Shown here: in pieces, positions 13,149-33,697 of the stretch
Layout: each line of letters opens with the position of its first letter
How positions within the stretch are numbered: the stretch's first letter is position 1
Assembly (NCBI GenBank): GCA_021774995.1
Contig: JAJFIM010000064.1
Coordinates: forward strand, 1-37,502
Length of the DNA: 37,502 bases
Direction of reading: 5' to 3'
Source of the DNA: Alphaproteobacteria bacterium
GTDB lineage: Bacteria; Pseudomonadota; Alphaproteobacteria; SMXP01
The notes under the pieces: generated by a model
Seen by the model: only the letters and a program-made list of their open reading frames with translations
Databases searched by the model: none
Told to the model about the DNA's origin: nothing
Program-made: the position numbers and the translations under genes

Positions 13149-13178
13149 CTCAACCATTACTGTTTTATCCGAAGGATT

Positions 13179-13373
13179 ATGATGACGGACGATCCAGAAA
13201 TTATGACGATTCGTGAGGTGGCGGAATATCTGCGCCTGACAGAAAAAACAGCTTATAGGTTTGCTCTAGAAGGCAAGATACCTGGTTTTAAAGTTGGTGC
13301 GGCGTGGCGTTTTAGAAGAGATGAGATTGTTACATGGACGAAATCTCAGAACAGGAACAAATCAGTGGCATAA
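13179..13373 (+). CDS. Small HTH_17 / excisionase-family (MerR-like) DNA-binding protein; probable operon regulator
   Basis: MTIREVAEYLRLTEKTAYRFALEGKIPGFKVGAAWRFRRDEIVTW is the canonical excisionase-family HTH. GAAGGA ribosome-binding site at 13171-13176, with tandem ATGs at 13179/13182. The stop lies 15 nt before the helicase gene. Confidence 0.7.
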   Translation: MMTDDPEIMTIREVAEYLRLTEKTAYRFALEGKIPGFKVGAAWRFRRDEIVTWTKSQNRNKSVA

Positions 13374-13388: not shown

Positions 13389-16300
13389 ATGAACGTTTTC
13401 GATTTAGATAAATCGCTACTGCAGGACTACGAGAGATTCGCCCGCTCTTTCACACGGATAAAAGCAGAAGACATCAAAACCCAAGTAGACGAACTTTATG
13501 CAAGCAATCGTTTCTGGCCTGAGCCATTAATCACTATCAACCCTCATTATGAGCGCGGCAGCAGTGTTACAGATCTAGTCTCACAAGGTTTATTACATCC
13601 GGATACTGCAAAAATCTTTCAAATCGATGATAACCCGATCATTCTTCACAGACACCAAACACAAGCTGTATCAAAAGCATGTGCAAAAAATAGTTTTGTT
13701 GTCACAACAGGAACAGGATCGGGTAAATCCCTCTGCTTTTTTGTGCCCATTGTAGATCAAGCAGTAAGAGCAAGATCTGAAGGACAGGAACAAAAAACAA
13801 GAGCCATCATTGTGTACCCGATGAACGCCTTGGCAAATAGCCAACTGAAAGAAATCGAAAAATTTATTGAGCAATCGGGCCTTCCTGAACATTTAAAACC
13901 TTCTTTTGCTCGATATACAGGCCAGGAGAGTACGGAAGAGCGTGAACGTATTATGAAATCAAAGCCAGATATTTTGCTAACAAACTTCATGATGCTTGAG
14001 CTTTTGATGACTCGTCAGAATAAGCTGGATAGCACCGTAATTAATAACGCTAAAGATTTAGATTTTATTGTGCTTGATGAATTACACACTTATAGGGGGC
14101 GACAAGGTGCTGATGTTGCAATGCTTGTTAGAAGGCTCAAAGATCGCCTATGCCGGGATAAAGAACCTATTTGCATCGGAACATCCGCAACTATGGCAAG
14201 CGAGGGAGATACAGCAGAAACTGTAGCCGAAGTGGCCTCTAAGCTTTTTGGAGCATCAATAGGCTCAGACGCAGTCATTGATGAAAGCCTGCAAAGAGCA
14301 ACCAACCCGGAACTCACGCTAAAGGTAATCAAGAAAGATTTGCCCCTTGTTATTGATGAAGAAATCCCAGAGAAAATAAGTGACGCCACCCTACAAAATC
14401 ATCCGCTGGCAATATGGATTGAACTGGAAATAGGCCTTTCAGACCAGCAAAAATTAAAGCGACGGACACCTGTTACCCTCGACGATGCTGCCAAACGCCT
14501 CTCGAAAGAAATAAATTGTAATGAAGTACGGTGCCGAGAACAGCTGGAGAAAATACTTACTCTTATGAATATGCCTGAGGTTGACAGGGGTGGTAAAAAC
14601 GAAAGAGCCTTTATGGCATTTAAGCTTCATCAATTTATTTCCGGAGCTGGCCATGTTTACGCAACATTAAAAAGCAAAGGGCATCGAAAAATCACTTTAG
14701 AGGGGCAACGTTTTGACCCGGAAAACACTAATTCCAGGCTTTATCCGTCATTTTTCTGTAGAAATTGTGGCCAAGAATATCACCCTGTAACCTTATCTCA
14801 AGAAAGCGGCATTGACAGATTTATCCCAAGAGGAATAGACGAAACCCCCTTGGATGATGAGAATACGGGGGATATTGCTGGATATTTGATGCCAGAACCT
14901 GAAAATGACCCAGAATTTGTTTTCACCGCCTCACCCGATGACGAGTCTTTTCCTGAAGAATGGATTGAGCAAGGACCAAAAGGATCCAGAGTTCGCAAGG
15001 AGAAAAAGAAATTTATTCCTCTCCAGTATAATGTGGAAGCTAATGGAGAACCTTCTTCTGTTGGTATTAGAGCTTGGTTTTTACCTGGAAAATTCCGTTT
15101 TTGCCTGTGTTGCAAAGATCAACCTGCCGGTCAAACAAGAGAAAGGAATAAGCTTGCGGGATTGTCTGCTGAAGGTCGTAGTTCTGCAACAACGCTTCTT
15201 GTCTCAAGTGCGTTGCGATGGATGAATAAAAATAAAGATATCCCAGAAGATAAGAGAAAATTACTTTGTTTTACAGATAATCGACAAGACGCGGCATTAC
15301 AAGCTGGAAACTTTAATGACTTCTTATTTGTATCTTTGCTTAGAGCAGCTACCTTTGCTGCGGTAAAACAAGCTGGCGAGAAAGGCCTAGCCGAAGATGA
15401 GTTCGGCGCACAAATTCAAAAAGCACTCGGCTTTAATGCCGAAAATATTAATCGGCGTCGAGAATGGATGCAGGACTCTGAAATTAAGGGTGTTGGTATT
15501 TATGATGCGGAAAGAATTTTGTCTCGTGTTCTCTCCTACCGTGTATGGACAGATCAGAAACGTGGATGGAGATATACAAACCCTAATTTAGAACAGTTGG
15601 GTCTTGTCACTGCAAAATATGTTGGGATCGATGATATTGCATCTGATCAAGAATTTCTTTCAAATCTCAATGTACAAGGCTTTCAGTTAGAGCCTAGTTT
15701 ATTAAAAGAAGTTTTAGGTATTGTGCTTGATACCCTCCGCAAAGGCCTTGCAGTAACAACAGACTCATTGAACAGAACAAATACAGATACCATTTCACAA
15801 AGTTCACGACAACTTTTGAGAGAGCCATGGAGTATATCTCAAAATGAAATTCCGAGTATTGCTTCTTATTTGATTATTGATGCTCCGAGAAGAGATGAAT
15901 CAGGGCTGAGAGGCGAGTATCTGATCGTGAGAGGAGGACCAAGAAGCGCGCTAGGGAAAAAACTAAACAAAGAAAAATATTGGGGAAGAAGATTAACCGG
16001 CGAGGAATATAAGGTATTGATCGATAACTTGCTTCGTGTTGCATCTGAATATCAATTGGTACGTCGTGTATCCACACCATTTGATGTAGATGGTTGGCAG
16101 TTATCCGCAAATGCCATCAGGCTTATTCACGAAGAATCCGCCACCGAGGAAAAAAACAAATATTTTATTGATCTTTATAAATCTCTGTCAGACATTTTGA
16201 TTAATGGCGGTGATGGTATTTTTGGCATTGAAGGTCGAGAACATACGGCTCAAGTAGATCAAGAAAGAAGAGAATGGAGAGAATGGCGCTTTAGATGGAA

Positions 16301-18569
16301 TGACGATGATCGTCAAAAAATCGAAGAAAATAAAAATATAATGCGCCAGTCCAGTGAACCAACAGTCTTTTTACCAGCTCTTTTTTGTTCTCCAACTATG
16401 GAGCTTGGCGTTGATATTTCTGCTCTTAATACAGTTTACTTAAGAAATGTCCCACCTACACCCGCAAATTATGCCCAACGCTCTGGGCGGGCGGGCAGAT
16501 CGGGACAAGCAGCACTGATTGTAACTTATTGTGCAGCCCAAGGGCCACATGATCAATATTACTTCTCTAAACCTGCTGCAATGGTAAGCGGAGTTGTTTG
16601 TCCCCCTGCCTTGGATTTAACAAATAGAGATCTAGTAGAAGCGCATCTTCATGCTGTATGGCTTGCAGAGTCTAGAGAAGATCTTGCCAATGATATCCCC
16701 CATGTGCTGGATTTGAATGAGGAAAGCCTCCCAGTTCAAAAAGAACTTTTTGATGGCCTGTCCACCGGTAGTCTAAATGAGCGATCTCGGATTTCAATGA
16801 AAAGAGTTTTACTCAGCATTACAGATGAATTAGAAAAATTTAACCCGGCATGGGCAAAAGATACGAATGCCTTTGTAGAAAGTGTTGCTGATAATGCGGT
16901 ACAGAACTTTTCTAAAGCTTTTGATAGGTGGAGAGATTTATACAAAGGGGCACGTGCTCAGCTTATAGAGGCAAATAGAAAATCTGAAATGCACGGTTTG
17001 AGTGCGAAAGATAGAAAAGAAGCAAAAATTCAACAAGCTCAAGCAAATGAACAAATAACACTTTTGGAGCGCGGCAATAGCAGCGGTGGTTCCGATTTTT
17101 ATACATATAGATACCTTGCTACAGAAGGTTTTTTACCCGGCTATAATTTCCCCCGTTTACCATTATACGCTTACGTCCCTGCAGTAGGTTTTGGAAACTC
17201 CAAAGCATCCTATCTTCAAAGAGCACGGTTTTTAGCGATTGCAGAATTTGGTCCGGGTAGTCTTATTTATCACGAAGGAAGAGCTTACCGTGTTGTGAAA
17301 GCCAAGCTACCCCCTGGTATAAAAACAGAGGACGGCGGACGCATTGCCACAAATAGCATATACATATGTGATGATTGTGGTGCTGCACATGATAAAGAAG
17401 TGGAAACTTGTTACGCTTGTGGAGCAAGCCTCGCGGGAATACATCCCATAAGAAATGTTTTAAGAATTGATAACGTTGAAACAAAGCCAGCAGAACGTAT
17501 TACGGCGAACGAGGAAGACAGACAAAGGCAAGGATATGATATCCAGACTGTTTTTGCCTGGCCGAACAGAGATGGTGTAGTAGATGTTTGTACCTCTGTT
17601 GCATATGACTCTGAAGGGCCTGTAGTAAGGCTTGATTATGCTCCAGGAACCACAATCAGTAGAATTAACAAGGGCCTTAAACGTCGAAAAGAAAAGAGCA
17701 TCATGGGTTTCGGCATAGATCCATCAACCGGATGGTGGAAAGGTGGATTAGAAAATGCCGAAGAGCAAGAAACACCCGAAGGCGCGGTGACACAAAGAAT
17801 TGTTCCCATTGTTCAGGACAATAAGAACGCCGCACTTCTAAGGCTTCCGACCAAATCGTTATCTGAATCTTCTATGGCAACGCTCCAGCACGCGCTAGTA
17901 CGCGGGCTTGAATTGGTTTTCCAACTTGAAGAAGGTGAAACACTTGCTGAACCTGTTCCGTCAAACGAGAATAGAAGTGCAATTCTTTTCTATGAGGCAA
18001 CAGAGGGTGGCGCGGGCGTTTTAGGAAGATTATTAAGTCAACCTGATACTCTTGCAAATGTTGCAAGAACAGCGCTCGAGTTAATGCACTATAAAAATAT
18101 TGATAAGGCAGCAAAAACTGGAGATGTAATTTTACTGGAAGAGGAGAAAAATGCTCAATGCGTCAAAGGGTGTTACAGATGCCTTTTATCATACTACAAC
18201 CAGCCAGATCATGAACATATTGACAGAACAGACAATGATGTTCTGCAGTTATTGCTTAAAATGGCAGATAGCTGTGTAAAAGAGGAAAATAAATTTACAA
18301 ACACGCTATCCACTAATGAAAAAAACGACTGGCATGTGGCCATAAAAAATTGGGAAATTCCAAGCCCTGATGCAGAACCGCTAAAGTTAGATAAAATGAC
18401 GTTTACACTGGTTTGGAGGCCTTTTTTGACAGTTGCCGTCACAGATTCTGTAGAAAAGGAGCAAAAAGAAAAAATTGAAGCTTTGGGCTTCACTGTCATA
18501 GAACTCCCATCTTCTCCCGGATCTACTCCTCCTAAGAATTTATCAAAAACACTCGGGGTTGCTGCATGA
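13389..18569 (+). CDS. 1726-aa DEAD/DEAH-box helicase fused to a DUF1998 (MrfA-type Zn-binding) domain; DrmA+DrmB-like fusion / DruE-like
   Basis: Walker A is TTGTGSGKS (about 13707). Motif II is LDELHTYRGRQGADV, motif III is GTSATM, and motif VI is AQRSGRAGRSGQ (about 16480). The DUF1998 hallmarks are EGFLPGYNFPRLPL (about 17130), the Cys cluster CDDCGAAHDKEVETCYACG (17367-17420), and the terminal CVKGCYRCL (18159-18182). Confidence 0.9.
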   Translation: MNVFDLDKSLLQDYERFARSFTRIKAEDIKTQVDELYASNRFWPEPLITINPHYERGSSVTDLVSQGLLHPDTAKIFQIDDNPIILHRHQTQAVSKACAKNSFVVTTGTGSGKSLCFFVPIVDQAVRARSEGQEQKTRAIIVYPMNALANSQLKEIEKFIEQSGLPEHLKPSFARYTGQESTEERERIMKSKPDILLTNFMMLELLMTRQNKLDSTVINNAKDLDFIVLDELHTYRGRQGADVAMLVRRLKDRLCRDKEPICIGTSATMASEGDTAETVAEVASKLFGASIGSDAVIDESLQRATNPELTLKVIKKDLPLVIDEEIPEKISDATLQNHPLAIWIELEIGLSDQQKLKRRTPVTLDDAAKRLSKEINCNEVRCREQLEKILTLMNMPEVDRGGKNERAFMAFKLHQFISGAGHVYATLKSKGHRKITLEGQRFDPENTNSRLYPSFFCRNCGQEYHPVTLSQESGIDRFIPRGIDETPLDDENTGDIAGYLMPEPENDPEFVFTASPDDESFPEEWIEQGPKGSRVRKEKKKFIPLQYNVEANGEPSSVGIRAWFLPGKFRFCLCCKDQPAGQTRERNKLAGLSAEGRSSATTLLVSSALRWMNKNKDIPEDKRKLLCFTDNRQDAALQAGNFNDFLFVSLLRAATFAAVKQAGEKGLAEDEFGAQIQKALGFNAENINRRREWMQDSEIKGVGIYDAERILSRVLSYRVWTDQKRGWRYTNPNLEQLGLVTAKYVGIDDIASDQEFLSNLNVQGFQLEPSLLKEVLGIVLDTLRKGLAVTTDSLNRTNTDTISQSSRQLLREPWSISQNEIPSIASYLIIDAPRRDESGLRGEYLIVRGGPRSALGKKLNKEKYWGRRLTGEEYKVLIDNLLRVASEYQLVRRVSTPFDVDGWQLSANAIRLIHEESATEEKNKYFIDLYKSLSDILINGGDGIFGIEGREHTAQVDQERREWREWRFRWNDDDRQKIEENKNIMRQSSEPTVFLPALFCSPTMELGVDISALNTVYLRNVPPTPANYAQRSGRAGRSGQAALIVTYCAAQGPHDQYYFSKPAAMVSGVVCPPALDLTNRDLVEAHLHAVWLAESREDLANDIPHVLDLNEESLPVQKELFDGLSTGSLNERSRISMKRVLLSITDELEKFNPAWAKDTNAFVESVADNAVQNFSKAFDRWRDLYKGARAQLIEANRKSEMHGLSAKDRKEAKIQQAQANEQITLLERGNSSGGSDFYTYRYLATEGFLPGYNFPRLPLYAYVPAVGFGNSKASYLQRARFLAIAEFGPGSLIYHEGRAYRVVKAKLPPGIKTEDGGRIATNSIYICDDCGAAHDKEVETCYACGASLAGIHPIRNVLRIDNVETKPAERITANEEDRQRQGYDIQTVFAWPNRDGVVDVCTSVAYDSEGPVVRLDYAPGTTISRINKGLKRRKEKSIMGFGIDPSTGWWKGGLENAEEQETPEGAVTQRIVPIVQDNKNAALLRLPTKSLSESSMATLQHALVRGLELVFQLEEGETLAEPVPSNENRSAILFYEATEGGAGVLGRLLSQPDTLANVARTALELMHYKNIDKAAKTGDVILLEEEKNAQCVKGCYRCLLSYYNQPDHEHIDRTDNDVLQLLLKMADSCVKEENKFTNTLSTNEKNDWHVAIKNWEIPSPDAEPLKLDKMTFTLVWRPFLTVAVTDSVEKEQKEKIEALGFTVIELPSSPGSTPPKNLSKTLGVAA

Positions 18570-21331
18570 GCCTTTCTATATCACCAGGAGATCTTGTAAC
18601 CGCACGTGGTAGGGAATGGATAGCCCTCCCTTCACCAGAAAACGATTGTTTGTTTCTACGTCCCTTATCAGGTAGTGAGGAAGACTCTCAATATATAGCT
18701 CCTGATTTAGAACGTGAGCCTGTTCGGCTAGCTAGGTTTTATTTACCATCTAAAGAAGAGATTTCATCACAAGACGGCGCAAGATTATTATCAGAAGCTT
18801 TGAAATTGTCATTGCAGCGCGGTGCAGGACCTTTCCGCTCAGCTGGTAGGCTGTCTTTCGACCCCAGAGCCTACCAGTTAGTGCCATTATTAATGGCTCT
18901 TCGGTTGGCCACTGTCCGATTACTGATTGCTGATGACGTGGGGATTGGAAAAACCATAGAAGCTGGTTTAATCCTAAGGGAGTTTATAGATAGAGGGGAG
19001 ATTGATCGTTTCTCCGTTTTATGCCCTCCACATCTTGTTGAGCAATGGAGTGACGAGTTAAAATTAAAATTTGATATCGATGCCGTTTCTGTCACATCTA
19101 GTTCCGCAGCGAAACTTGAGAGATCATTATTGGATTCCCAATCACTCTTTGATGCTTATCCATATACCATTGTAAGCCTAGATTACATCAAGGCAGATAA
19201 ACGTCGAGACAATTTCGCAAGAGCTTGCCCGAAATTCGTAATTGTGGATGAAGCTCATGCATGTGTTGGTACGCATAAGGGCAAGCAGCAAAGATTTGAG
19301 CTGCTTAAACGCCTTACAGCGGATGAAGAGCGGCACATGATCCTTCTTACTGCCACACCTCATAGCGGTGATGAGTCTGCTTTTGATCGCTTACTAAGCT
19401 TACTTAATGAAACCTTTGCCGGTCATTCCCTTGAGGATGAAAATTCTCGTATCCAACTGTCACGCCATTTTGTTCAGAGACGGCGCATTGATATTGTCGG
19501 ACGTGAGTGGGGGGAAGAAAACACATTCCCTAAGCACGAAACAACTGAAAACACCTATTCTCTAAATAACGAGCATCGTAATTTTCATGAAGCTATCTTG
19601 GACTACTGCTTAGAAATTGTTGAAAAAGCAGGACAAGATCAGAGGAAAAGACGTTTAGCATTCTGGGGGACGTTAGCATTAATGCGTTGTGTTGGATCTT
19701 CTCCCGCTTCTGCATTGAGTGCTTTGCGTAACAGAATTTCAGTTAATCCTGATAGCCTCGAAGAGCAAATTTTTGATGATGACGCAGACGAAAATGATGC
19801 GGCAGATGTAGAACCTTCCTCTGGGTTCTCTGGAGATTCACAACTGCAGTCATTGATTACACAAGCTGAACTTTTGACAAAATCTAGTGACCCTAAATTG
19901 GAAGAGACTATTAAAGTTCTTAAGCCTCTGATTAAAGAAAAGGCCAATCCGGTGATTTTTTGCCGTTATATAGCGACTGCTCACCATGTCGCAAAAGGGT
20001 TAAGAAAAATATTTCCAAAACTTCGCATTGAAGTAGTGACAGGCGAACTCGCCTCTGAAGAACGACGAAGGCGGGTTGAAGATATGGCAAAATCAGATCA
20101 GAGGCTATTGGTCGCAACAGACTGTCTGTCCGAAGGTATCAATTTGCAAGATTTGTTCGATACAGTCTTGCATTACGACCTTTCTTGGAATCCTACACGT
20201 CATCAACAACGGGAAGGACGTGTTGACCGTTTTGGACAAACTGCACCACTTGTTAGATCAGTTTTGCTTTATTCTCCCGATAGTGCAATTGACGGTGCTG
20301 TTCTTGATGTGATTTTAAGAAAAGCCGAAGCAATCCGCAAAGCAACTGGTGTAACAGTACCCTTACCGGAAGAGCGTGGTGCTATAACCAATGCTCTGAT
20401 GAAGGCAGTATTACTTCGTAAAAGTGATAAACTTCAATATGAGCTTGACCTTTTTGACGACTATCAAAAGGTAGAGGCTCGCTGGAGAGATGCAGAAGAA
20501 GGCGAGAAGCGTTCGCGCACACGTTTTGCCCAGAATGCCATTAAACCGGAAGAAGTAGCCCCGGAATGGAAAAGATGGAAAAAACTTCTGGGTACATCAG
20601 AAGAAGTTGAGCGTTTCATAATGCGCTCAATGAGTCGATTTGATGCTGCTCTGGAGCCTTCAAAAAACTATACATATTTAGCTCATCTTGAGGCACTTCC
20701 CTCTGCTCTTGTTGAAAGACTGGAAAATAGAAATCTGCGAGGATCAATCAACGTAGCTTTTACTGAAGACCGCACTCCATCAGGAGCCAAGATTATTGGA
20801 CGAAACCATCCATTAACCAGCATTTTGGCAGAGTCCCTTTTTGAAGGAGCACTTGACCCTATTTCAAGTCCGCTTGACCCTCTTGGGCGTATGGGAGCAT
20901 GGACGACCGCTGACGTACAATCAATGACAACATTAGCACTTCTCCGCCTACGCTATAAACTGACTGTTCATGGTCGAAAAGAGCGCGTCCTTCTTGTCGA
21001 AGAAGCTGAAGCTCTTGCTTTCGAAGGGCTGTCCGACCAGCCTATATTAACAGGAGAGCAAGCCAGAAACCTTTTGGAACATAAGGCTGCAGGTAATATT
21101 ACGGACACAGCCAGAGATCGTCTTTTACAGCAAGCACATGAGCGCATTTCTCAAGCTTTAGACAACAGCATTTCTGTTTATGCTCAAGAGCGTGCTGTCC
21201 TGCTAGAAAAAGAACATGGGCGTGTACGTGATTGCTATCCATCCCATATAACAGCGCCAAAGGTCAGTGTTGAGGTTGTCTTGCCAGCGGATATCGTGGG
21301 CATTTTTGTTTTAGTTCCGGCGGGGGTGTAG
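18566..21331 (+). CDS. SNF2-family helicase (DrmD-like)
   Basis: ADDVGIGKTIEAG (motif I), IVDEAHAC (motif II), LLTATPHSG (motif III), LVATDCLSEGINLQ, and HQQREGRVDRFGQ (motif VI). There is an ATGA overlap with the upstream gene. Confidence 0.9.
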   Translation: MSLSISPGDLVTARGREWIALPSPENDCLFLRPLSGSEEDSQYIAPDLEREPVRLARFYLPSKEEISSQDGARLLSEALKLSLQRGAGPFRSAGRLSFDPRAYQLVPLLMALRLATVRLLIADDVGIGKTIEAGLILREFIDRGEIDRFSVLCPPHLVEQWSDELKLKFDIDAVSVTSSSAAKLERSLLDSQSLFDAYPYTIVSLDYIKADKRRDNFARACPKFVIVDEAHACVGTHKGKQQRFELLKRLTADEERHMILLTATPHSGDESAFDRLLSLLNETFAGHSLEDENSRIQLSRHFVQRRRIDIVGREWGEENTFPKHETTENTYSLNNEHRNFHEAILDYCLEIVEKAGQDQRKRRLAFWGTLALMRCVGSSPASALSALRNRISVNPDSLEEQIFDDDADENDAADVEPSSGFSGDSQLQSLITQAELLTKSSDPKLEETIKVLKPLIKEKANPVIFCRYIATAHHVAKGLRKIFPKLRIEVVTGELASEERRRRVEDMAKSDQRLLVATDCLSEGINLQDLFDTVLHYDLSWNPTRHQQREGRVDRFGQTAPLVRSVLLYSPDSAIDGAVLDVILRKAEAIRKATGVTVPLPEERGAITNALMKAVLLRKSDKLQYELDLFDDYQKVEARWRDAEEGEKRSRTRFAQNAIKPEEVAPEWKRWKKLLGTSEEVERFIMRSMSRFDAALEPSKNYTYLAHLEALPSALVERLENRNLRGSINVAFTEDRTPSGAKIIGRNHPLTSILAESLFEGALDPISSPLDPLGRMGAWTTADVQSMTTLALLRLRYKLTVHGRKERVLLVEEAEALAFEGLSDQPILTGEQARNLLEHKAAGNITDTARDRLLQQAHERISQALDNSISVYAQERAVLLEKEHGRVRDCYPSHITAPKVSVEVVLPADIVGIFVLVPAGV

Positions 21332-21334
21332 ATC

Positions 21335-24300
21335 ATGGCAAAAATTCGTAAATCCTCTTCCATCATTTTCGACTCCCTGACACTGGAAGGTAGCCTGATT
21401 GCCCCGGCCATGCTGGAACGCATTGCTGCTCGTGAAGCCGGAGAGCAGAGCGAAACGGCCTATAGCATCCCCAAAGGGCTGACCTTGCGTGATGAAATTG
21501 CCCGCTATTTCCGCATCGGCCAAGCCCTGTTTGATGAACTTAATAAATCAGACGAACCCACTACAGCAGCAACAATCAGCTTCACAGAAAACCTTTTGCG
21601 CGATATTTTCGCTTTTCAAGACATTAAACATACAAGCACTCGCACGCTGGATGAGCACAACTATGCTGTCACGCTGGAAGCACTTGATGGTCGTGTGCCG
21701 GTTGTGATTGTTCCTCCATCAGATGCTCTTGATCGTGCCAGTGATCACTTGCCAACGGATGGTCGCAAACGCTCTGCTGCGACCGCTATCCAAGATTGGT
21801 TAAATGCGGATGAAGATTCGTTATGGGGCTTCTGCTGTAACGGCGATCGTCTACGTCTTGTTCGTGACAACGCTAGCCTGACTCGTCCGGCTTATATTGA
21901 GGCCGATCTGCGCCAGATTTTTGAAAACGATAATTTTGCTGACTTTACAGCTCTATGGCTCTTGATTCATGTCAGTCGTTTTGGGCTAAAAGATTCCTCC
22001 GTTTCCGATTGCGCACTTGAACGTTGGAAAGAATCCGGTAGCAAAGAAGGCGTTGCTGCCCGTGATCGTCTGCGGGACGGAGTACAGGAGGCTCTTCTTG
22101 CTCTTGGAAACGGTTTTCTGGCGCACACTCAAAATGATGATTTACGGCAGAAAATTGAAAATGGCGAACTTCCGCTACAAGACTTCTTTACCCAGCTTTT
22201 ACGCCTTGTTTACCGTATGATCTTTTTACTGGCCGCAGAGGATCGCAATCTCCTTCACACACCAAATGCAGTTATTGCTGTTCGTAAGCTCTACCAGGCC
22301 GGTTATTCCCTTGATAATTTACGGAAACAATCTATTCGCCGTGCTGCCTGGGATCGTCACTATGATAAATGGGAAGGTCTACTGATTGTTTTTGCCGCTC
22401 TGGCAAATGGAGAAGAACGCCTCGGCCTCCCTGCACTCAGCGGATTATTCGCAAGCGATACAACGCCTGATCTGGATCAAGCACACTTATCCAACAAATC
22501 ACTGATGGAGGCCATTTACCGTTTAGCCTGGTTGAAAGAAGACCACCGTCTAACTCCAGTTAATTGGCGGGATATGGAGACAGAAGAATTAGGTTCTGTC
22601 TATGAAAGCTTGCTGGAGCTAACCCCGCGTCTAAACGGTGATGGCTGGCGTTTTTTCTTTGCAGAGGGAGCAGAAACAAAAGGAAATGCTCGCAAGACCA
22701 CTGGTAGCTATTATACGCCTGACTCGTTGGTACAGGCCTTACTCGACTCTACGCTTGATCCCGTTTTGGATCGGGTAGAGCGGGAAAGCGAAAATCCAGA
22801 GAAAGCGTTGCTCTCTCTTTCTGTTATTGATCCGGCCTGTGGTTCCGGCCACTTCCTGTTGGCTGCGGCGCGGCGGATTGCCAGCCGGGTGGCGCGTTTA
22901 CGCGCTGGCGGTGTAGCCTCAGCGGAAGATTATCGCCATGCCCTGCGCGATGCCGTGCGCAACTGCGTTTACGGTGTGGATCGTAATCCGATGGCGGTAG
23001 AGCTAACCAAAGTCGCACTTTGGATTGAAACCGTTGAACCGGGCAAGCCGCTCGGTTTTCTCGATGCCAATATTCGCTGCGGTGATGCACTGCTCGGCGT
23101 ATTTGATCTGGAAACCCTGCGCGAAGGTATTCCCGATGCGGCTTATAAACCGCTGACCGGTGATGATAAACCCACAGCAAGAGATTACGCCAAGCGTAAC
23201 AAGGCAGAAAAAGGGGGGCAAGGCACTCTTGATTTTTCCAGAGGAAAATCCGCACTGCCGCCACCGCCACCACTGGCAAAAGCAGCCAAACACCTCCGAA
23301 ATCTGCCCGAGGACAGCGTTAAACAAATTTCCGAAAAGAAACAAAAATTCGTAGCGGCACAAAATGATCCCCAGCGACAAAAATGGCGCGTGGCAGCAGA
23401 TATGCTTGTCGCTGCCTTTCTGGCCAAGAAAACAAAAGATGACCCGCCAGACAAAATATCATCTACCATTCCCACCACGGCGCATATGTGGCAACAACTC
23501 ACAGATGGTTGTTCTCATGGTCCTTTGCTGAACAAAGTACAAGATCTAGCCAGTAAAGCCCGCGCTTTCCACTGGCCGCTTGAATTTCCGGAAATCACGG
23601 AACGTGGTGGTTTCGATGTTGTGCTCGGAAACCCGCCGTGGGAACGCATAAAATTACAAGAGCAAGAGTTCTTTGCTTCTCGTGACACAGAAATCGCAAA
23701 GGCTCCTAACGCTGCCGCCCGGAGAAAATTAATTTCTGCATTGGCACAGGCCATGCACGGATCCCGTGAACGATCTTTGTTTGATGAATTTGAAGAAGCC
23801 AAACGTCTGGCTGAAGCTGCCTCTCTTTTTTCGCGTGAAAGTGGACGTTATCCGTTTACGGGACAAGGAGATGTTAATACATATGCTCTCTTCGCCGAGC
23901 ACTTTAAGAACATGATCAGCCTACATGGACAAGCTGGAGTGATTGTTCCGACAGGCATTTCTACAGATTCTACAACTGCACCTTTTTTTGCCTCCTTAGT
24001 AAAAGAAAAACAGTTGGTTAGATTGATTGATTTTGAAAATCGCGAGAAAATTTTCCCTGCTATTGATAGTCGTATAAAATTTTGTCTACTTACTATGGGG
24101 AATAATGTGGAGAAAGCCGCTTTCTCTTTCTTTTTAACAAATCCTTTGCAAATGTCTGAGGAAGAACGACAATTTACTCTGTCTCCAGAACAAATTGTTA
24201 ATATCAATCCCAACACTAAAACTGCCGCCATATTTCGTTCTCGTAGAGATGCGGAACTAGCTTCCAAAATCTATAGTTCCTTTCCTATTTTGTTTAAGGA

Positions 24301-25789
24301 AAATAATAAACATGACGGTAATTTATGGAGTATATCTTTTATGACTATGTTTCATATGTCTGGAGATAGCGATCTGTTTTATACAGCCAATCAATTAACG
24401 AGAAAGGACTTTAAAAGTATTGGTATTAACTGGGTTCTAGGACAGGAAAATTATGTGCCTTTATATGAAGGAAAAATGGTTCATTTATATGATCATAGAT
24501 TCAGCACCTTTGAGAATTACACACAACGGCCGCCTAAAGGAGCTAGTTTGCCTAACCCCAATAGTGAACAGCTCTCAAATCCCAATTATGCAGTTGCTCC
24601 TTGGTATTGGGTTGAAAAAGATCACGTTGAAAACAAGCTCTCTAATTATGATAAGAATTGGCTTTTGGGGTTCAGAGATTCTACAAATGCTACAAATGAA
24701 AGAAGTCTTATAGTTTGCGTTATTCCCAAAGTTGGATTAAATCACAAATTTCCAATTATTATTTCGCCATATCCATCAAAAACTCTTTGCTGCCTGTATG
24801 CTAATTTGGCATCAATTATTCTTGATTATATTGTTCGCCTTAAATTAGGTGGAACATCAATGACATATCATTACGTCAAGCAGTTTCCAATACTTCCTCC
24901 TTCCACTTACACAAATACTGCTCTCGACTTTATCGTTCCGCGCGTGCTGGAGCTAACCTATACCAGTCACGCGATGGAACCTTTTGCCCGTGATTTGGGT
25001 TATGATGGGCAGCCATTTGCTTGGGATGAAGAGCGCCGTGCTCTACTGCGGGCGGAACTAGATGCTTGGTATGCCAATGCCTACGGTTTGACCCGTGATG
25101 AGCTACGCTATATCCTTGATCCTGCTGATATCATGGGAGAGGACTACCCATCTGAAACCTTCCGCGTCCTTAAGAATAAGGAAATCAAGGAATACGGTGA
25201 ATACCGCACAAGCCGCCTCGTACTAGAGGCTTGGGACAGGATGTATGAGGAAGAGATTCAAATACCCGTACAACAAATCTCTGCAAATGCATGGGCAACA
25301 CCGCCCGCTGTGCTGCCTCAAAACATCGCCATGTTTGCCATTATGGATATTATGCACACAATGGGACAGAACGTACCGGAGCAAAAAGCCCGCCTGGCGG
25401 CTCTCTTAGCGCGAAAACCAGCACTGGCGCTTCCCTTCATGGATGATACACAAAAAGCGGAATGGCAGCGTGTGGTTGGTCAGGAAGCTCAACCTTTGCC
25501 CGATAATGTTGTTCCGATTACCGACTTTCAGAATAATCAGGGCGCAGACCATGCCTGGGGCGAAGCAATGCGTCAGCTTGAAGGTTCAGGCGCACTGATC
25601 CGGCAAAACGGCATCTGGTCGACGGGAGTACAACCTGGCTCCTCGGGACAGGGCTGGATGGAAAGCCGCGTGCAAGAAATAATAGACATTGTTGATAACA
25701 TCGATGATATCCAAGCCGCATACGACAATATAATCATCTTATTCCTGCAGGAGGTCCACAATGGTGCGGCAAGGCGAGCTGTTTCCTAG
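21335..25789 (+). CDS. 1484-aa gamma-class N6-adenine DNA methyltransferase (Eco57I/DrmMI-like)
   Basis: GSYYTPDSLV, motif I VIDPACGSGHFLLAAARRI, VYGVDRNPMAVELTKVALW, and motif IV VVLGNPPWERIK. There are large N- and C-terminal extensions. The gap to the SNF2 gene is 3 nt. Confidence 0.9.
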   Translation: MAKIRKSSSIIFDSLTLEGSLIAPAMLERIAAREAGEQSETAYSIPKGLTLRDEIARYFRIGQALFDELNKSDEPTTAATISFTENLLRDIFAFQDIKHTSTRTLDEHNYAVTLEALDGRVPVVIVPPSDALDRASDHLPTDGRKRSAATAIQDWLNADEDSLWGFCCNGDRLRLVRDNASLTRPAYIEADLRQIFENDNFADFTALWLLIHVSRFGLKDSSVSDCALERWKESGSKEGVAARDRLRDGVQEALLALGNGFLAHTQNDDLRQKIENGELPLQDFFTQLLRLVYRMIFLLAAEDRNLLHTPNAVIAVRKLYQAGYSLDNLRKQSIRRAAWDRHYDKWEGLLIVFAALANGEERLGLPALSGLFASDTTPDLDQAHLSNKSLMEAIYRLAWLKEDHRLTPVNWRDMETEELGSVYESLLELTPRLNGDGWRFFFAEGAETKGNARKTTGSYYTPDSLVQALLDSTLDPVLDRVERESENPEKALLSLSVIDPACGSGHFLLAAARRIASRVARLRAGGVASAEDYRHALRDAVRNCVYGVDRNPMAVELTKVALWIETVEPGKPLGFLDANIRCGDALLGVFDLETLREGIPDAAYKPLTGDDKPTARDYAKRNKAEKGGQGTLDFSRGKSALPPPPPLAKAAKHLRNLPEDSVKQISEKKQKFVAAQNDPQRQKWRVAADMLVAAFLAKKTKDDPPDKISSTIPTTAHMWQQLTDGCSHGPLLNKVQDLASKARAFHWPLEFPEITERGGFDVVLGNPPWERIKLQEQEFFASRDTEIAKAPNAAARRKLISALAQAMHGSRERSLFDEFEEAKRLAEAASLFSRESGRYPFTGQGDVNTYALFAEHFKNMISLHGQAGVIVPTGISTDSTTAPFFASLVKEKQLVRLIDFENREKIFPAIDSRIKFCLLTMGNNVEKAAFSFFLTNPLQMSEEERQFTLSPEQIVNINPNTKTAAIFRSRRDAELASKIYSSFPILFKENNKHDGNLWSISFMTMFHMSGDSDLFYTANQLTRKDFKSIGINWVLGQENYVPLYEGKMVHLYDHRFSTFENYTQRPPKGASLPNPNSEQLSNPNYAVAPWYWVEKDHVENKLSNYDKNWLLGFRDSTNATNERSLIVCVIPKVGLNHKFPIIISPYPSKTLCCLYANLASIILDYIVRLKLGGTSMTYHYVKQFPILPPSTYTNTALDFIVPRVLELTYTSHAMEPFARDLGYDGQPFAWDEERRALLRAELDAWYANAYGLTRDELRYILDPADIMGEDYPSETFRVLKNKEIKEYGEYRTSRLVLEAWDRMYEEEIQIPVQQISANAWATPPAVLPQNIAMFAIMDIMHTMGQNVPEQKARLAALLARKPALALPFMDDTQKAEWQRVVGQEAQPLPDNVVPITDFQNNQGADHAWGEAMRQLEGSGALIRQNGIWSTGVQPGSSGQGWMESRVQEIIDIVDNIDDIQAAYDNIIILFLQEVHNGAARRAVS

Positions 25790-27734
25790 TCCCGTAGAAA
25801 CGATCACGGTGGATGCAGCGCGCAGTGAGCCGCGCTTATGGATTCGCAGGCTCGTTATCTGGGAAACGCCTGAGAAAATTCTGCAAGATATTTCGTTGCG
25901 CCGGGGCCTCAATATCGTTTATTCCCCGGATCCCGGAACACAGGCGGCCATACTGGGGCAAAAAGGCGGGAGCGGTCACGGGGTTGGAAAAACATTGCTT
26001 TGCCGTTTTCTGCGTTATTGCCTTGGTGAAGATACATTTGCGCACGATGATCTGCGGCGGGATATTCAGAGCAAATTTCCCGAAGGTCTGGTTGGCGCTG
26101 AAGTTATGGTTAAAGGTCAATTATGGTCGGTTATCCGCCCCATTGGTGCAACCAGAAAACATATTGCCCAGCCAGATATAGCGCTTGGAGATCTGCTCAC
26201 GAGTCAGGACGACAATGCTGATATTGCGCTCTATTTCAGTGCGCTCAATGACTTGATTGCCGATACTGTGGATCATAACATTCCGGGCAGCCATGAATGG
26301 AAACGCTGGATTTTTGCGCTGGCCTGGCTTAGCCGGGATCAGGAAAGCCGTTTTTCAAATCTATTGGACTGGCGCCATCCTGATGCCGATACGCGCTCTC
26401 CCGTCCGGGATACCTCCGTAGACCAGAGAAACATTATTATTCGCTCTTTTCTTAACATTATGACCGATGAGGAATTAACGGCTCAGGGACAAAGGGACGC
26501 TCTTTCCCAGAAGAAAAGTGACCTGACCCAGAATATCAGTCATCTCAAACACAGCACTCAGGGTCTTTCAGGTGAAGTTGCCTCTGGTTTGGGACAGGCA
26601 GAACAATCGGGCGTGGAGCCTCTGGAAGCTGATGTGCTTTTGAAAGTGGCACAAGAAAATCTTAATGCAACAGATAACACACCTGCTGACGGTACGTTAA
26701 AAACAGCCATTGCCGGTAAACGCGAAGAGCTTGAAGCACTGGTATCGCAAAAAGCCCTGCTTACAAAGAAACAGGAGGAATTTGATGGTCTGATTGCTAT
26801 TCAAGAAGATCATATTGGGGTTCTGAAAGGTGAAAAGGCAAACCTGGATGCTAACGCCATTAAAGCCCGGCTAGGAGAAGTTTGCCCCGTCTGTAGCGTT
26901 CCCATTGATGAAGCGCTGGCGGAAGGCTGTGGGCTTTCACATGTATTGCCGGATAAAGATAAGGTCGAACAGGATGCCAGTCAGGTTGAAACAAAAATTA
27001 CAGTCTGTAAACAGGCAATCACCAACTATCAGCAGCATAAAAAAAATAATGATACAGCGTTACAAAACCTTGAAATTCAAATTCAGGATACACGTCAACA
27101 AATAGAAAATCTTGAAGGCCGTGCAAATCAGGAGCGTAAAGACCAAAGGCAAAAGTGGTTCATAGCCAAATCTCTTCACCTTCAAGCAGAAAAACTTGTA
27201 AAAGAATTGGAGCAATTGAAGGTCGATGAAGCAGAATTGCAGGACGTACCTGAAAAAGAACAGCAATTGCGTGAAACCTTACAAAATCTACGTTCAAAAC
27301 ATTCAGAAATCATGACACGTATGCAGGAACTTTTCGTATATGTCTGCCAAGGATTCCTCGGAGATAAAGAAGCAAAGCTGGAACTCACTGGCAAAGGTAT
27401 TCAAGCCACAGTAACCACCGGAGGAACCGCTATGGAAACCGTAAAAGTTATAGCTTTTGATCTGGCAACAATGTTTATGAGCCTTGAAGGAAGGAGCTTT
27501 TTACCCTCTTTTCTTATTCATGACAGTCCCCGTGAAGGTGATTTGGGAGAATCAATCTATCACCGCCTCTTCAATTTTATGGCGGACATGGAGGGGTTAA
27601 AAGAAGAGCCTTTATTCCAATATATTGTTACGACAACATCTGCTCCCCCGGAAAAATTCGTAAAGGATCCCTATCTCGTTTTACAACTTGATGGGCAGGA
27701 AGATGAAAACCGCCTGCTAAAAACCAGCCTTTAG
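25761..27734 (+). CDS. Rad50/SbcC-like SMC-fold ABC ATPase with a long coiled coil and a CPVC zinc-hook-like motif
   Basis: AGGAGG ribosome-binding site 7 nt before ATG 25761. The N-terminal head is RLWIRRLVIWE...LRRGLNIVYS with the P-loop GGSGHGVGKT. Residues about 230-520 are heptad-rich, with CPVC (26883-26894) at the midpoint. The C-terminal head has the Walker B/D-loop SFLIHDSPREGDL. Confidence 0.7.
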   Translation: MVRQGELFPSPVETITVDAARSEPRLWIRRLVIWETPEKILQDISLRRGLNIVYSPDPGTQAAILGQKGGSGHGVGKTLLCRFLRYCLGEDTFAHDDLRRDIQSKFPEGLVGAEVMVKGQLWSVIRPIGATRKHIAQPDIALGDLLTSQDDNADIALYFSALNDLIADTVDHNIPGSHEWKRWIFALAWLSRDQESRFSNLLDWRHPDADTRSPVRDTSVDQRNIIIRSFLNIMTDEELTAQGQRDALSQKKSDLTQNISHLKHSTQGLSGEVASGLGQAEQSGVEPLEADVLLKVAQENLNATDNTPADGTLKTAIAGKREELEALVSQKALLTKKQEEFDGLIAIQEDHIGVLKGEKANLDANAIKARLGEVCPVCSVPIDEALAEGCGLSHVLPDKDKVEQDASQVETKITVCKQAITNYQQHKKNNDTALQNLEIQIQDTRQQIENLEGRANQERKDQRQKWFIAKSLHLQAEKLVKELEQLKVDEAELQDVPEKEQQLRETLQNLRSKHSEIMTRMQELFVYVCQGFLGDKEAKLELTGKGIQATVTTGGTAMETVKVIAFDLATMFMSLEGRSFLPSFLIHDSPREGDLGESIYHRLFNFMADMEGLKEEPLFQYIVTTTSAPPEKFVKDPYLVLQLDGQEDENRLLKTSL

Positions 27735-27754
27735 TGCAAATTAAGGTACAGAAA

Positions 27755-28486
27755 ATGAACATTCAAAACCCACCCAGTGCAGTGATTTCTATTGAAGCGC
27801 AGAAAGCCGCATTTGATAACGGTTATCGAATTGAACATGATATTCGTGATGGCTGGCTACATTATCGTTCAGCCACTGTATCAGATGAAATTGCAATCTC
27901 AGGATCTTCTGATCACGGGCCATGGCACTTAAATATTACCCATGAGGGCGCACAGCAAGAATTAGGATCATCTACTTTTAGTTTCGATAGGCTGGCCGAT
28001 TTGTATAGCACACTTGATAAAGTTTACCGCCTAAGTGCCAGCTTGCCTGATGTTCCATTACAACGCTTTCAAGAGGAACAGGCAAAGCTTCCTAAAACAA
28101 CAGAGGCTGAGAGACTGGTTATTCAGCGTGTTGGGCAGAACCTTTTCCGTGAGGCACTGCTTACCTATTGGCACGAAAGGTGCCCTCTTACCGGTATTAC
28201 GGACACAACTCTTTTGCGTGCATCTCACATTGTATCATGGGCCGAGTGTGAGTCCGACGCTCAAAGATTGGATGTACATAACGGTCTTTTATTATCCGCC
28301 TTGTGGGATGCGGCATTTGATAAAGGACTTGTTAGTTTTAACAATGATGGATCGGTACTGGTATCCCCTAATCTAAGCAGAGAGGCGAGATGTTCTCTTG
28401 ATATTGAAAAAGCTCCAAGACTTACCGATTTAACCGAAGAACACCATAAAAATCTTGATGCTCACCGTAAGAAAAACGATTTTTGA
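27755..28486 (+). CDS. HNH (HNH_2-type) endonuclease with an uncharacterised N-terminal domain
   Basis: QRVGQNLFREALLTYWHERCPLTGITDTTLLRASHIVSWAEC...DVHNGLLLSALWDAAFDKGLVSF is the PF13391-type HNH pattern. The start is either ATG 27755 (AAGG upstream) or GTG 27734, which overlaps the ATPase stop. Confidence 0.75.
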   Translation: MNIQNPPSAVISIEAQKAAFDNGYRIEHDIRDGWLHYRSATVSDEIAISGSSDHGPWHLNITHEGAQQELGSSTFSFDRLADLYSTLDKVYRLSASLPDVPLQRFQEEQAKLPKTTEAERLVIQRVGQNLFREALLTYWHERCPLTGITDTTLLRASHIVSWAECESDAQRLDVHNGLLLSALWDAAFDKGLVSFNNDGSVLVSPNLSREARCSLDIEKAPRLTDLTEEHHKNLDAHRKKNDF

Positions 28487-32043: not shown

Positions 32044-32065
32044 TTTTATTCTCCTGTTTTGGTTT

Positions 32066-33694: not shown

Positions 33695-33697
33695 GGA

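Follow-up and report, generated by a model that had tools for sequence, protein, structure and literature searches.

A LmuB-like ATPase encoded behind the methyltransferase of an ARMADA Type I operon and its possible tether

ARMADA was named only in 2025. Its Type I is defined by a gene for the helicase YprA in first position, a BrxHII-like helicase next and then a PglX-like methyltransferase, and it has been given as a system of three genes (Bell et al. 2025, bioRxiv 10.1101/2025.09.15.676423). The only ARMADA tested experimentally so far is Type II, which acts directly and non-abortively. Type II needs a fourth gene, ArmD, and is a precedent for a fourth ARMADA subunit. Here we describe a stretch of 37,502 nucleotides (nt) from an alphaproteobacterium (contig JAJFIM010000064.1, positions 1 to 37,502 of the forward strand), referred to as the window, in which an operon that we assign to ARMADA Type I contains a gene for a LmuB-like ATPase directly behind the methyltransferase gene, followed by a gene for an HNH_2 nuclease. 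For the coordinates of all features see Table 1.

LmuB, Lamassu's SMC-like ATPase, combines an ATP-binding cassette (ABC) head and a coiled coil with a zinc hook, and defence depends on this hook (bioRxiv 10.1101/2025.03.14.643221; PMC12663957). Short LmuB proteins have a Walker B motif of the form hhhhD[Q/S/T/E] and between zero and two CxxC motifs (PMC12663957). DNA ends and the replication origins of phages are sensed by LmuB. Elements binding to LmuB (the C-terminal domain of LmuA, or LmuC) are encoded in Lamassu immediately before LmuB, as the C-terminal domain of SbcD is encoded before SbcC. With moderate confidence we read the ATPase of the window as an integrated subunit of ARMADA Type I that would be tethered via a C-terminal extension of the methyltransferase, and neither as a part of a Lamassu system nor as one half of a Septu-like pair.

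The core of the operon is built up from three proteins. The YprA-like helicase matches Pfam DEAD (1.5e-27) and MZB (7.5e-8) as well as the PADLOC profiles of DruE (1e-90). For the last 160 amino acids (aa), where a Vsr-type nuclease was looked for, Pfam gave nothing significant. The SNF2 helicase matches DpdE (PDLC02853, 7.5e-194), DrmD (2.4e-73), BrxHII (1e-51), the BrxHI/BrxHII model (5e-56) and RapA (7e-36). The methyltransferase contains an NPPW motif at aa 766–769 (nt 23630–23641) and shows type IIG and weak PglX profile matches. In the related operons that we fetched, YprA is 45–63% and SNF2 46–68% identical to the window, and YprA homologues are the first operon gene in nearly all loci. 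Table S1 of Bell et al. 2025 lists the YprA proteins of CP080530, CP140866 and CP143888 as 'ARMADA Type I helicase' (bioRxiv 10.1101/2025.09.15.676423). All three records (Mesorhizobium sp. AR02, R. leguminosarum and Agrobacterium, respectively) contain SNF2, ATPase and HNH homologues, in CP080530 as a full five-gene operon by annotation and in CP140866 and CP143888 at the expected spacing. With YprA in first place and SNF2 followed by the methyltransferase, the operon classifies as ARMADA Type I by its gene content and order. An SMC, ABC, LmuB or DUF2326 ATPase or an HNH gene is mentioned neither in the main text nor in the searched supplements of the defining study (bioRxiv 10.1101/2025.09.15.676423).

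The original prediction, made from the DNA letters of the window, had called the operon DISARM-like. We rejected an identity with DISARM, because YprA is a fusion, no gene for the nuclease DrmC (a PLD enzyme) is present in the operon and the NCBIfam DISARM equivalogs score far under their cut-offs (DrmD 278.6 against 610, DrmA 14 against 999).

The ATPase and its Cys-rich apex

The ATPase had been predicted as a protein of 657 aa with split heads, on the basis of a GGSGHGVGKT and a FLIHDSP motif. Both motifs are there, at aa 69–78 (nt 25965–25994) and aa 584–590 (nt 27510–27530), and the Walker B motif is of the type hhhhD-S and not hhhhD-E. Conservation was counted over 83 distinct family members of 33–76% identity. 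The Walker A residues K77, G74 and G76 are kept in all 83, and the same holds for H587, D588, S589, P590 and E592 in the C-terminal half of the head. G555 is found in 81/83 members and Q194 is invariant.

The two halves of the head are separated by an insert of approximately 298 residues (aa 236–533), in good agreement with the ~290 residues of coiled coil originally proposed. An AlphaFold2 model based on a 117-sequence alignment reached a predicted local distance difference test score (pLDDT) of 85.7 and folds the insert into two antiparallel arms. The predicted order is the N-terminal half of the head, the ascending arm, the apex, the descending helix and the C-terminal half of the head. The ascending arm is interrupted by two breaks. 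The apex (aa 357–398) is non-helical, has a lower pLDDT of 52–68 and holds the tetrapeptide CPVC (aa 375–378, nt 26883–26894), so that the placement of this motif at the midpoint of the coiled coil is borne out by the model.

Several Rad50 hooks have this same tetrapeptide, CPVC. Its first Cys in the ATPase, C375, is conserved in 83/83 and its second, C378, in 82/83 family members. The conserved apex motif, C-P-[IV]-C-x-V-P-I-D-x3-A-E-G-C-x-[LI]-S-H, is larger than the CxxC of Rad50 and includes a third Cys, C390, in 82/83 members. A possible fourth zinc ligand is provided by His394 in 63/83 members; in 7 of the remaining 20 it is substituted by Cys397, and 13 have neither. The span covering this alternating position in the window is 26883–26954 (+). 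Judged from the family alignment, the CPVC motif is under selection and not a chance occurrence. Each protomer thus offers 3–4 potential zinc ligands, compared with two in a Rad50 half-site. The third invariant Cys together with the frequent fourth ligand would allow an intramolecular zinc site, and the alternation of His394 and Cys397 hints at a site of the Cys3His or Cys4 type, unlike the shared hook of Rad50.

The profile and fold searches gave LmuB among their best matches. The PADLOC profile of LmuB (PDLC03859) matches the ATPase over nearly its full length (E = 3.6e-25, aa 28–640 of 657), and there are weaker LmuB matches too. Pfam DUF2326 reaches 25.3 bits on the C-terminal part, under its cut-off of 28.7. 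The SMC and Rad50 equivalog models score 18–23 bits against cut-offs of 567–729, the Rad50 model NF003034 among them with 22.8 bits against 700. A Foldseek search with the AlphaFold2 model resulted in YydD of B. subtilis (9a6c) and the LmuB chains 9uxh_F, 9hqu_A/B, 9hqx_B and 9nyg_B as best matches (E = 2.7e-16 to 1e-10), followed by Rad50 (7zr1_D, 3.5e-10), LmuB 9ux7_A (1.5e-9) and then SMC and JetC. The structural alignments with LmuB chains have 13–18% identity. Sequence searches of the PDB, with the single sequence as well as with a 117-sequence profile, gave coiled-coil noise only and no LmuB.

An exhaustive hidden Markov model (HMM) search yielded 701 cluster representatives of the ATPase family at E <= 1e-30, nearly all of 640–675 aa. 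None of 50,697 phage genomes contained a match. The homologues are named 'chromosome segregation protein SMC' or 'DUF2326 domain-containing protein' by the annotation pipeline PGAP. The first of these names calls for correction, and the match to the LmuB profile could in turn misfile the protein as a Lamassu component.

Short LmuB as described in the literature allows Ser after hhhhD and one CxxC motif, and the ATPase conforms to this with 'FLIHDS' and a single CPVC. An apical hook is to be expected in the ATPase, because LmuB proteins carry one. The original prediction had considered a hook on the coiled coil to be unusual, but a zinc hook is normal in LmuB (bioRxiv 10.1101/2025.03.14.643221; PMC12663957). 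The 657-aa protein is a short-LmuB-type, SMC-like ABC ATPase of the Lamassu family, which is itself derived from Rad50/SbcC.

A LmuB-type ATPase is one of the components expected of Lamassu, and here it is supported by the LmuB profile, the LmuB folds and a CxxC motif in 82/83 members. An LmuA effector with its LmuB-binding C-terminal domain gave no profile match among the operon proteins or in the methyltransferase extension, even at E <= 10, and the nuclease domain of the HNH protein is located at its C-terminus, whereas LmuA has the effector at its N-terminus. LmuC, a middle component that some Lamassu clades lack, gave no profile match either, and since the reading frames of methyltransferase and ATPase overlap, no gene separates the two. 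Because both LmuA and LmuC are absent, the operon is not a Lamassu system. Membership of Septu fails because there are no profile matches: neither PtuA nor PtuB was among the PADLOC matches at E <= 0.01. Of the two parallels originally drawn for the ATPase and the HNH nuclease, a Septu pair and a Lamassu-like pair, the first is thus to be dropped, and the second holds for the ATPase as a LmuB-like protein.

Linkage to the methyltransferase and the HNH nuclease

We scanned one genome per species and found relatives of the ATPase in 395 of these genomes (Acidobacteriota, Alpha-, Beta- and Gammaproteobacteria, Myxococcota, Spirochaetia, Nitrospira and others), from which 80 reference loci were fetched. 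The methyltransferase gene lies directly upstream on the same strand in 76/80 reference loci; of the four exceptions, two are truncated at a contig end. Only two loci, L051 and L085, have adequate upstream sequence and yet no methyltransferase; L005/L010 keep its C-terminal remnant only. Wherever the flank of a locus reaches far enough, the methyltransferase is preceded by the SNF2 helicase and YprA. The start of the ATPase gene is overlapped by the methyltransferase gene in 82/82 scorable loci, by 17 nt in 56, by 29 nt in 13 and by 4–32 nt in the rest. In the window the overlap with the methyltransferase open reading frame (ORF, 21335–25789) is exactly 29 nt, as had been predicted.

Among 72,556 plasmids, a homologue of the SNF2 helicase is found on 70, the full-length ATPase on 8 and the HNH nuclease on 22; only ~8 of the 70 plasmids with an SNF2 homologue carry the ATPase. 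Members of the ATPase family are restricted to ARMADA Type I operons, which are carried by plasmids, integrative and conjugative elements (ICEs) and islands. From gene order and overlap, the ATPase appears to be the fourth, translationally coupled gene of a sub-type of ARMADA Type I. Its embedding behind the methyltransferase, at first sight an unusual feature of this locus and described as such in the original prediction, is the rule in the family and not an oddity of the window. No description of an SMC/LmuB-like fourth ARMADA subunit was found in a literature search that excluded the ABC ATPase classification of Krishnan et al. 2020.

The closest full operon is located at 12856–21897 of L001, a metagenome scaffold of 615 kb, and has an ATPase 67% identical to that of the window. 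It adjoins genes for Fic, a relaxase with a NikA-like protein, ArdA and a DUF559 helicase, indicating a conjugative element. Other homologues sit on conjugative rhizobial plasmids. In L005/L010 (contig_8165 of an Acidobacteriaceae metagenome-assembled genome, 9148–11995 and 13182–15260) an ORF of 293 aa corresponding to the extension stands together with an intact ATPase gene and without helicases. This remnant adjoins an M78/HTH pair and a CBASS-like pair of SMODS and patatin genes.

The extension forms the last part of the methyltransferase. Its conserved core comprises ~150 aa (approximately aa 1335–1484, nt 25337–25786) with invariant Trp, Arg and Phe positions, and its final 29 nt overlap the start of the ATPase gene. 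With tblastn the extension was detected in 82/89 ATPase-bearing loci, compared with 0/7 ARMADA-I-like loci lacking the ATPase. The seven misses are made up of two contig-cut loci, two without any methyltransferase and three with an undetected stretch of similar length. The methyltransferase of L088 (1293 aa), which is not followed by an ATPase, aligns only to aa 3–1298 of the window protein, and the orphan ORF of 293 aa in front of the stranded ATPase of L005 corresponds exactly to the extension (E = 1.6e-38). No similarity of the extension was found in Pfam (E <= 10), PADLOC (E <= 10) or a profile search of the PDB. We also considered the extension as a stand-alone, LmuC-like gene. This was rejected, as the profile search gave only contig-cut fragments, one frameshifted assembly (L097) and one case at a contig start (L098).

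Co-variation was analyzed by correlating pairwise distances across the loci (given as Pearson / Spearman coefficients). The SNF2 helicase correlates with the N-terminus of the methyltransferase (0.95–0.97 / 0.86–0.92) and with the HNH nuclease (0.94 / 0.81), and with the ATPase at 0.66–0.71 / 0.28–0.38. The value for ATPase and HNH is 0.70 / 0.41. The extension follows the ATPase (0.92 / 0.90) and not the adjacent region of the methyltransferase, aa 900–1298 (0.08 / -0.07). The partial correlation of extension and ATPase given SNF2 is 0.85, and that of extension and SNF2 given the ATPase is 0.005. Since the extension tracks the ATPase and the HNH nuclease tracks SNF2, the evolutionary module consists of the methyltransferase C-terminal domain and the ATPase, with HNH belonging to the core. 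The operon of the window is itself a mosaic in this respect. Its core is nearest to the HNH-bearing group (SNF2 57–67%, methyltransferase N-terminus 50–67% identity), and its extension (38–44%) and ATPase (43–44%) are nearest to the acidobacterial type, with which it has the 29-nt overlap in common.

An HNH nuclease with an unassigned N-terminal domain had been predicted directly downstream of the ATPase and is indeed encoded there. Its length is 243–250 aa, depending on the start. The GTG start overlaps the stop of the ATPase gene by one base. The AlphaFold2 model has a pLDDT of 92.9. For the N-terminal ~115 aa no domain family matched in any library, with Pfam taken to E <= 10 and EVE/PUA included. 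The HNH part alone (aa 122–218) matches VcaM4I (6yex) in sequence with E = 2.8e-15, and Foldseek resulted in 6yex (1.4e-7), PtuB 8eea (0.02) and weakly in TagI. There is also a weak match to the NCBIfam model of a phosphorothioated-DNA restriction endonuclease. The family is conserved along its full length (53–78% identity) with the catalytic His and Asn motifs kept, and the N-terminal α/β domain is conserved with or without the ATPase in the locus.

The HNH nuclease is present in 47/80 reference loci, and the ATPase occurs without it in 33/80. Where a locus holds both, the HNH gene starts -4 to +49 nt relative to the stop of the ATPase gene in 47/51 cases. In the 33 loci without HNH the genes downstream of the ATPase are heterogeneous and separated by gaps. 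They encode M78/HTH, UvrD, a reverse transcriptase, Schlafen AlbA_2, a glycosyltransferase and proteins of no assigned family, and we rejected a conserved alternative effector slot on these grounds.

Conversely, HNH occurs without the ATPase. In Sphingomonas MM-1 pISP0 it follows the methyltransferase directly, and the same arrangement is indicated by the spacing of the homologues on the M. extorquens AM1 megaplasmid, an unannotated record. In other cases the methyltransferase and HNH are separated, by an M78-like protein of 298 aa in L088, by three small ORFs in P. marcusii pCP157_06, by a UvrD/GajB-like protein of 900 aa in Croceicoccus and by a HEC-03 ABC ATPase pair in A. soli. We rejected the 298-aa ORF of L088 as a split-off C-terminus of the methyltransferase, as it encodes an unrelated, M78-like protein. 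UvrD/GajB-like helicases of 900–924 aa are located between the methyltransferase (or the ATPase) and HNH in L095 (Croceicoccus marinus pCME4A9II, 18323–21801), L078 and L083, an arrangement that resembles the ArmD slot of ARMADA Type II. The pair in L096 (Acinetobacter soli pAS843-2, 17793–20450) consists of an AAA_15/AAA_21 ABC ATPase (HEC-03B, 1e-63) and a protein of 175 aa (HEC-03A, 8e-26). In this instance the slot of the ATPase clearly holds an embedded, validated defence module.

In a tree of the SNF2 helicase, the HNH-bearing loci without the ATPase nest at separate places inside the clade with ATPase plus HNH, which indicates repeated loss or replacement. HNH is an optional fifth gene that tracks the helicase core, and the original idea of ATPase and HNH as one unit does not hold in evolutionary terms.

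A proposed mechanism and its alternatives

Judged from where it lies and how it co-varies, the extension of the methyltransferase is the best candidate for an element that binds the ATPase. LmuB-binding elements precede LmuB in Lamassu, and the extension takes the corresponding position and co-varies with the ATPase. We therefore propose that a dimer of the ATPase is tethered to the methyltransferase. In the proposed mechanism, the ATPase would dimerise through its Cys-rich apex, and the hook-linked dimer would be held by the ARMADA methyltransferase via the C-terminal extension. In an ATP-dependent manner it would engage DNA ends or replication intermediates, as LmuB and Rad50 do, and would add the recognition of these structures to the methylation-based discrimination by the ARMADA complex. 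On unmethylated invader DNA, sensing would be coupled to the YprA/SNF2 helicase-nuclease machinery and also to the HNH nuclease in operons that have one. In this way the complex that reads methylation would take the role of the Lamassu effector.

A more far-reaching version of this mechanism is put forward tentatively, as we consider it possible but rather doubtful. Here the extension would stand in functionally for the LmuA C-terminal domain or LmuC, and the entire RM-like (restriction–modification-like) machine would act as the effector. Restriction by the YprA and SNF2 helicase-nucleases and by HNH would be licensed only by two coinciding signals, the absence of methylation together with free DNA ends or replication intermediates. 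Two defence logics known so far from separate descriptions would thereby be united in one hybrid system. A Cys3-His/Cys4 apex binding zinc within one protomer, in contrast to the shared site of the Rad50 hook, would be a subsidiary novelty.

Several points weigh against the proposed tethering. The co-variation of extension and ATPase could stem from their adjacency, with breakpoints upstream of the extension, and not from protein contact. Neither the LmuA C-terminal domain nor LmuC nor any solved structure is detectably similar to the extension. The comparison set lacking the ATPase is small, and two of its 7 loci, L088 and L089, are almost identical copies. Operon lineages can exchange the ATPase module, as the SNF2–ATPase Spearman coefficients indicate, and a semi-autonomous module would behave in the same way. 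Unrelated genes (a UvrD-like helicase, the HEC-03 ABC ATPase pair, an M78-like protein) fill the slot of the ATPase elsewhere. Finally, with 3–4 ligands per protomer, zinc bridging between protomers in the manner of Rad50 may not be taken as assured.

The most probable of the alternatives is one that we still regard as unlikely. According to this alternative, the ATPase and HNH form a self-sufficient, Lamassu- or Septu-like sensor-effector module that rides at the 3' end of ARMADA and works without the ARMADA proteins. It would account for the close spacing of the two genes where both occur and for the exchange of the ATPase module among operon lineages. Pairs of an ABC ATPase and a nuclease are a common design of defence systems, and defence genes are often embedded in RM-like operons (Payne et al. 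2024). HEC systems embedded in Hma, BREX or DISARM are a precedent, and the very slot behind the methyltransferase holds the HEC-03 pair in A. soli and the UvrD-like helicase in Croceicoccus. A self-sufficient pair is, however, difficult to reconcile with the 33 loci in which the ATPase is followed by heterogeneous, gap-separated genes instead of HNH, with the occurrence of HNH without the ATPase, and with the closer co-variation of HNH with SNF2 (0.94) than with the ATPase (0.70). Moreover, the ATPase family is almost never found away from the methyltransferase, the reading frames always overlap and the methyltransferase bears an extension specific for the ATPase, while there is no signal of an LmuA C-terminal domain, LmuC, PtuA or PtuB.

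Somewhat less probable still is a guard function like that of PrrC. The ATPase would be kept inactive on the methyltransferase extension and would monitor ARMADA, and an anti-restriction protein would release a back-up response, through HNH where present and possibly abortive. The obligate association with one RM-like partner and the dedicated, interface-like extension are in line with such a role, for which PrrC, an ABC ATPase embedded almost exclusively in type I RM systems, is the published precedent. But the loci without HNH have no conserved, dedicated effector gene directly after the ATPase, and the ATPase itself resembles LmuB, a sensor of DNA ends, and has no fused toxic domain. A possibly abortive back-up also contrasts with the direct, non-abortive action of ARMADA Type II.

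The third alternative concerns HNH only and is improbable in our view. HNH would be a separate, Type IV-like, modification-dependent add-on whose N-terminal domain reads modified bases, and it would extend the range of the system to phages with modified DNA without any functional link to the ATPase. VcaM4I and TagI are modification-dependent enzymes. Among solved structures, the EVE-HNH enzyme VcaM4I comes closest to the HNH domain, and the weak matches to TagI and to the phosphorothioated-DNA restriction endonuclease model point in the same direction, as does the conservation of the N-terminal domain irrespective of the ATPase. That domain, however, matches no reader-domain family, and a nuclease directed by methylation, if encoded next to a methyltransferase, would have to recognise another mark. 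The co-inheritance of HNH with the helicase core and its translational coupling to whichever gene precedes it indicate a role linked to the core.

A housekeeping SMC/SbcC-like protein of repair or of mobile-element maintenance, as the SMC/Rad50-like fold, the PGAP names and the ParB-like genes elsewhere in the window might suggest, is already contradicted by the contexts found and deserves next to no weight, given a length of only 657 aa without a hinge, the absence of an Mre11/SbcD or kleisin partner, the confinement of the family to ARMADA Type I operons on mobile elements and islands, and the very low scores of the SMC and Rad50 equivalogs.

If the reading of the ATPase as a tethered ARMADA subunit is correct, a sizeable branch of ARMADA Type I would have its own fourth subunit from the Lamassu/Rad50 lineage, a matching domain on its methyltransferase and an optional HNH nuclease. 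The use of LmuB-type sensors would be widened beyond Lamassu, and it would become testable by which signals other than methylation status RM-like 'DISARM-family' systems sense invaders. The extension would also serve as a worked example of an interaction module detected from discordant co-variation inside a single gene.

Operon features, surroundings and related systems

Table 1. Features of the ARMADA Type I operon, with positions in the window.
Feature	Position	Strand	Basis
Small helix-turn-helix (HTH) ORF, 100 aa from GTG; likely ATG start 13179 or 13182 (~63 aa)	13071..13373	+	by eye
YprA-like helicase, 1726 aa, DEAD + Helicase_C + MZB/DUF1998 fused, DrmA-DrmB-like fusion, DruE-like	13389..18569	+	Pfam, PADLOC
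BrxHII/RapA-like SNF2 helicase, 921 aa, ArmA/DrmD-like component	18566..21331	+	SNF2-rel_dom, Helicase_C (Pfam)
PglX-like N6-adenine DNA methyltransferase, 1484 aa, ArmB/DrmMI-like	21335..25789	+	Eco57I 1.6e-21, N6_Mtase, DrmMI 3.7e-74
Methyltransferase C-terminal extension, aa 1299–1484, ~185 aa, proposed ATPase docking domain	25229..25786	+	tblastn, co-variation
LmuB-like ABC ATPase, 657 aa, short-Lamassu-type, Rad50/SbcC superfamily	25761..27734	+	ORF call, profiles, fold search
Walker A GHGVGKT, aa 72–78	25974..25994	+	sequence and family alignment
Ascending coiled-coil arm, aa 236–356 (helices 236–276, 287–305, 311–356)	26466..26828	+	DSSP on AlphaFold2 model
Zinc-hook-like apex motif CPVCSVPIDEALAEGCGLSH, aa 375–394	26883..26942	+	family alignment
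Descending coiled-coil arm, aa 399–533, single continuous helix	26955..27359	+	DSSP on AlphaFold2 model
C-terminal head half: signature-like TTGGTAME (aa 552–559), Walker B/D-loop SFLIHDSPRE (aa 583–592)	27414..27536	+	sequence and alignment
HNH_2 nuclease, 250 aa from GTG, or 243 aa from ATG 27755 (database-called form)	27734..28486	+	Pfam HNH_2 aa 150–203
HNH N-terminal α/β domain	27755–28093	+	AlphaFold2
HNH_2 domain with intact 'ASHIV' (28220–28234) and 'VHNG' (28274–28285)	28181–28342	+	Pfam, sequence

The region of the methyltransferase in front of the extension (aa 900–1298, 24032–25228, +) is variable and resembles a target-recognition domain. Its divergence is uncorrelated with the rest of the operon (r = 0.08–0.30), and the flanks co-vary strongly. 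This is the pattern that would be expected from swapping of target-recognition domains.

The small HTH ORF looks excisionase/AlpA/MerR-like ('IREVAEYLRLTEKTAYRFALEGKIPGFKVG'), lies 16 nt upstream of the YprA gene and may encode a regulator of the operon. HTH_17 genes are found near a homologous operon in L086. In the 770 nt before the HTH ORF (12302–13070) there is no ORF of >=150 aa and nothing was identified, and promoter and terminator scans around the ends of the operon gave counts at chance level.

As a whole, the window appears to be a mosaic mobile element. A large serine recombinase with Resolvase and Recombinase domains, encoded upstream of the operon (8918–12301, +), is followed by two ParB/RepB-like genes, which suggests an integrative or plasmid-like mobile element carrying the defence operon. 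Directly after HNH, at 28572–29564 (+), a protein of 330 aa matches the PADLOC candidate PDC-S11 over its full length (2e-130) and Pfam DUF4268 (6e-32). It looks like a separate, single-gene defence candidate. In 96 related loci the gene was not found, except for a 12% fragment in L001. Phage-type genes occupy the opposite strand at 29983–36859 (-). They include a tail-fibre/J-like protein (35030–36859 (-), phrog_5616, 2e-87) that is closest to tail proteins of Roseobacter phages with ~40% identity, and a phrog_3108 protein at 31295–31777 (-). Overlapping small ORFs at 30510–31056 (-), one of them with a lipoprotein-like signal ('LLSAC'), are candidate lysis genes and may form a spanin pair. 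Scans for tRNA genes and Rfam families in the window found none.

Among the known systems, the HNH_2 enzymes of the VcaM4I and TagI type have the HNH_2 catalytic domain with the catalytic His and Asn motifs in common with the nuclease of the window. They are stand-alone restriction enzymes, whereas HNH is here part of a multi-gene operon and has an N-terminal domain without a Pfam match. Septu likewise has a gene for an ABC-type ATPase beside one for an HNH nuclease. PtuA has no long, hooked coiled coil, the fold match between HNH and PtuB is marginal (8eea_G, E = 0.02), and ATPase and HNH are not mutually dependent here. PrrC within EcoprrI, a type Ic RM system, is comparable in that an ABC ATPase is embedded almost only in a single type of RM-like operon. 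PrrC, however, contains an anticodon-nuclease domain of its own and lacks both coiled coil and hook, and at the locus described here nothing indicates guard behaviour.

Rad50 and SbcC share the split ABC head, the antiparallel coiled coil and the apical CxxC with the ATPase. The arms of the ATPase are much shorter, however, its Walker B motif lacks the catalytic Glu at the usual position and each protomer has three invariant Cys residues instead of two. No Mre11/SbcD phosphoesterase partner adjoins its gene, and Rad50 matches the fold less well than most of the solved LmuB chains do. The LmuB proteins of Lamassu (Salmonella LmuACB 9hqu/9hqx, LmuABC-DNA 9nyg, type II 9uxh; also YydD 9a6c) have the same split ABC head with an antiparallel coiled coil of ~300 residues and an apical CxxC. 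They are close in size (562–653 residues in the solved LmuB chains) and have a Walker B motif of the same hhhhD[Q/S/T/E] form. Unlike in these proteins, the hook of the ATPase includes a third Cys that is invariant and, as a rule, a fourth ligand, and the family is confined to ARMADA Type I operons. The upstream partner in the window is a methyltransferase of 1484 aa with its own, unrelated C-terminal extension and not an LmuA or LmuC gene.

DISARM class 1 also combines a DEAD/DUF1998 helicase module, a DrmD-like SNF2 helicase and a DrmMI-like methyltransferase and presumably targets unmethylated DNA too, but in the window helicase and DUF1998 are fused, whereas DISARM has DrmA and DrmB as separate genes. 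The published ARMADA Type I has the same three core genes in the same order, co-directional and overlapping; the operon of the window differs from it by the conserved fourth gene for the ATPase, the fifth gene for HNH and the additional C-terminal domain of the methyltransferase. In ARMADA Type II (ArmABCD) the gene order is reversed, and the fourth gene, ArmD, encodes a GajB-like UvrD helicase with a RelE domain. The three core activities are the same as here, and in both cases a fourth gene, for an NTPase, accompanies them at the operon's 3' end, which in Type II is essential.

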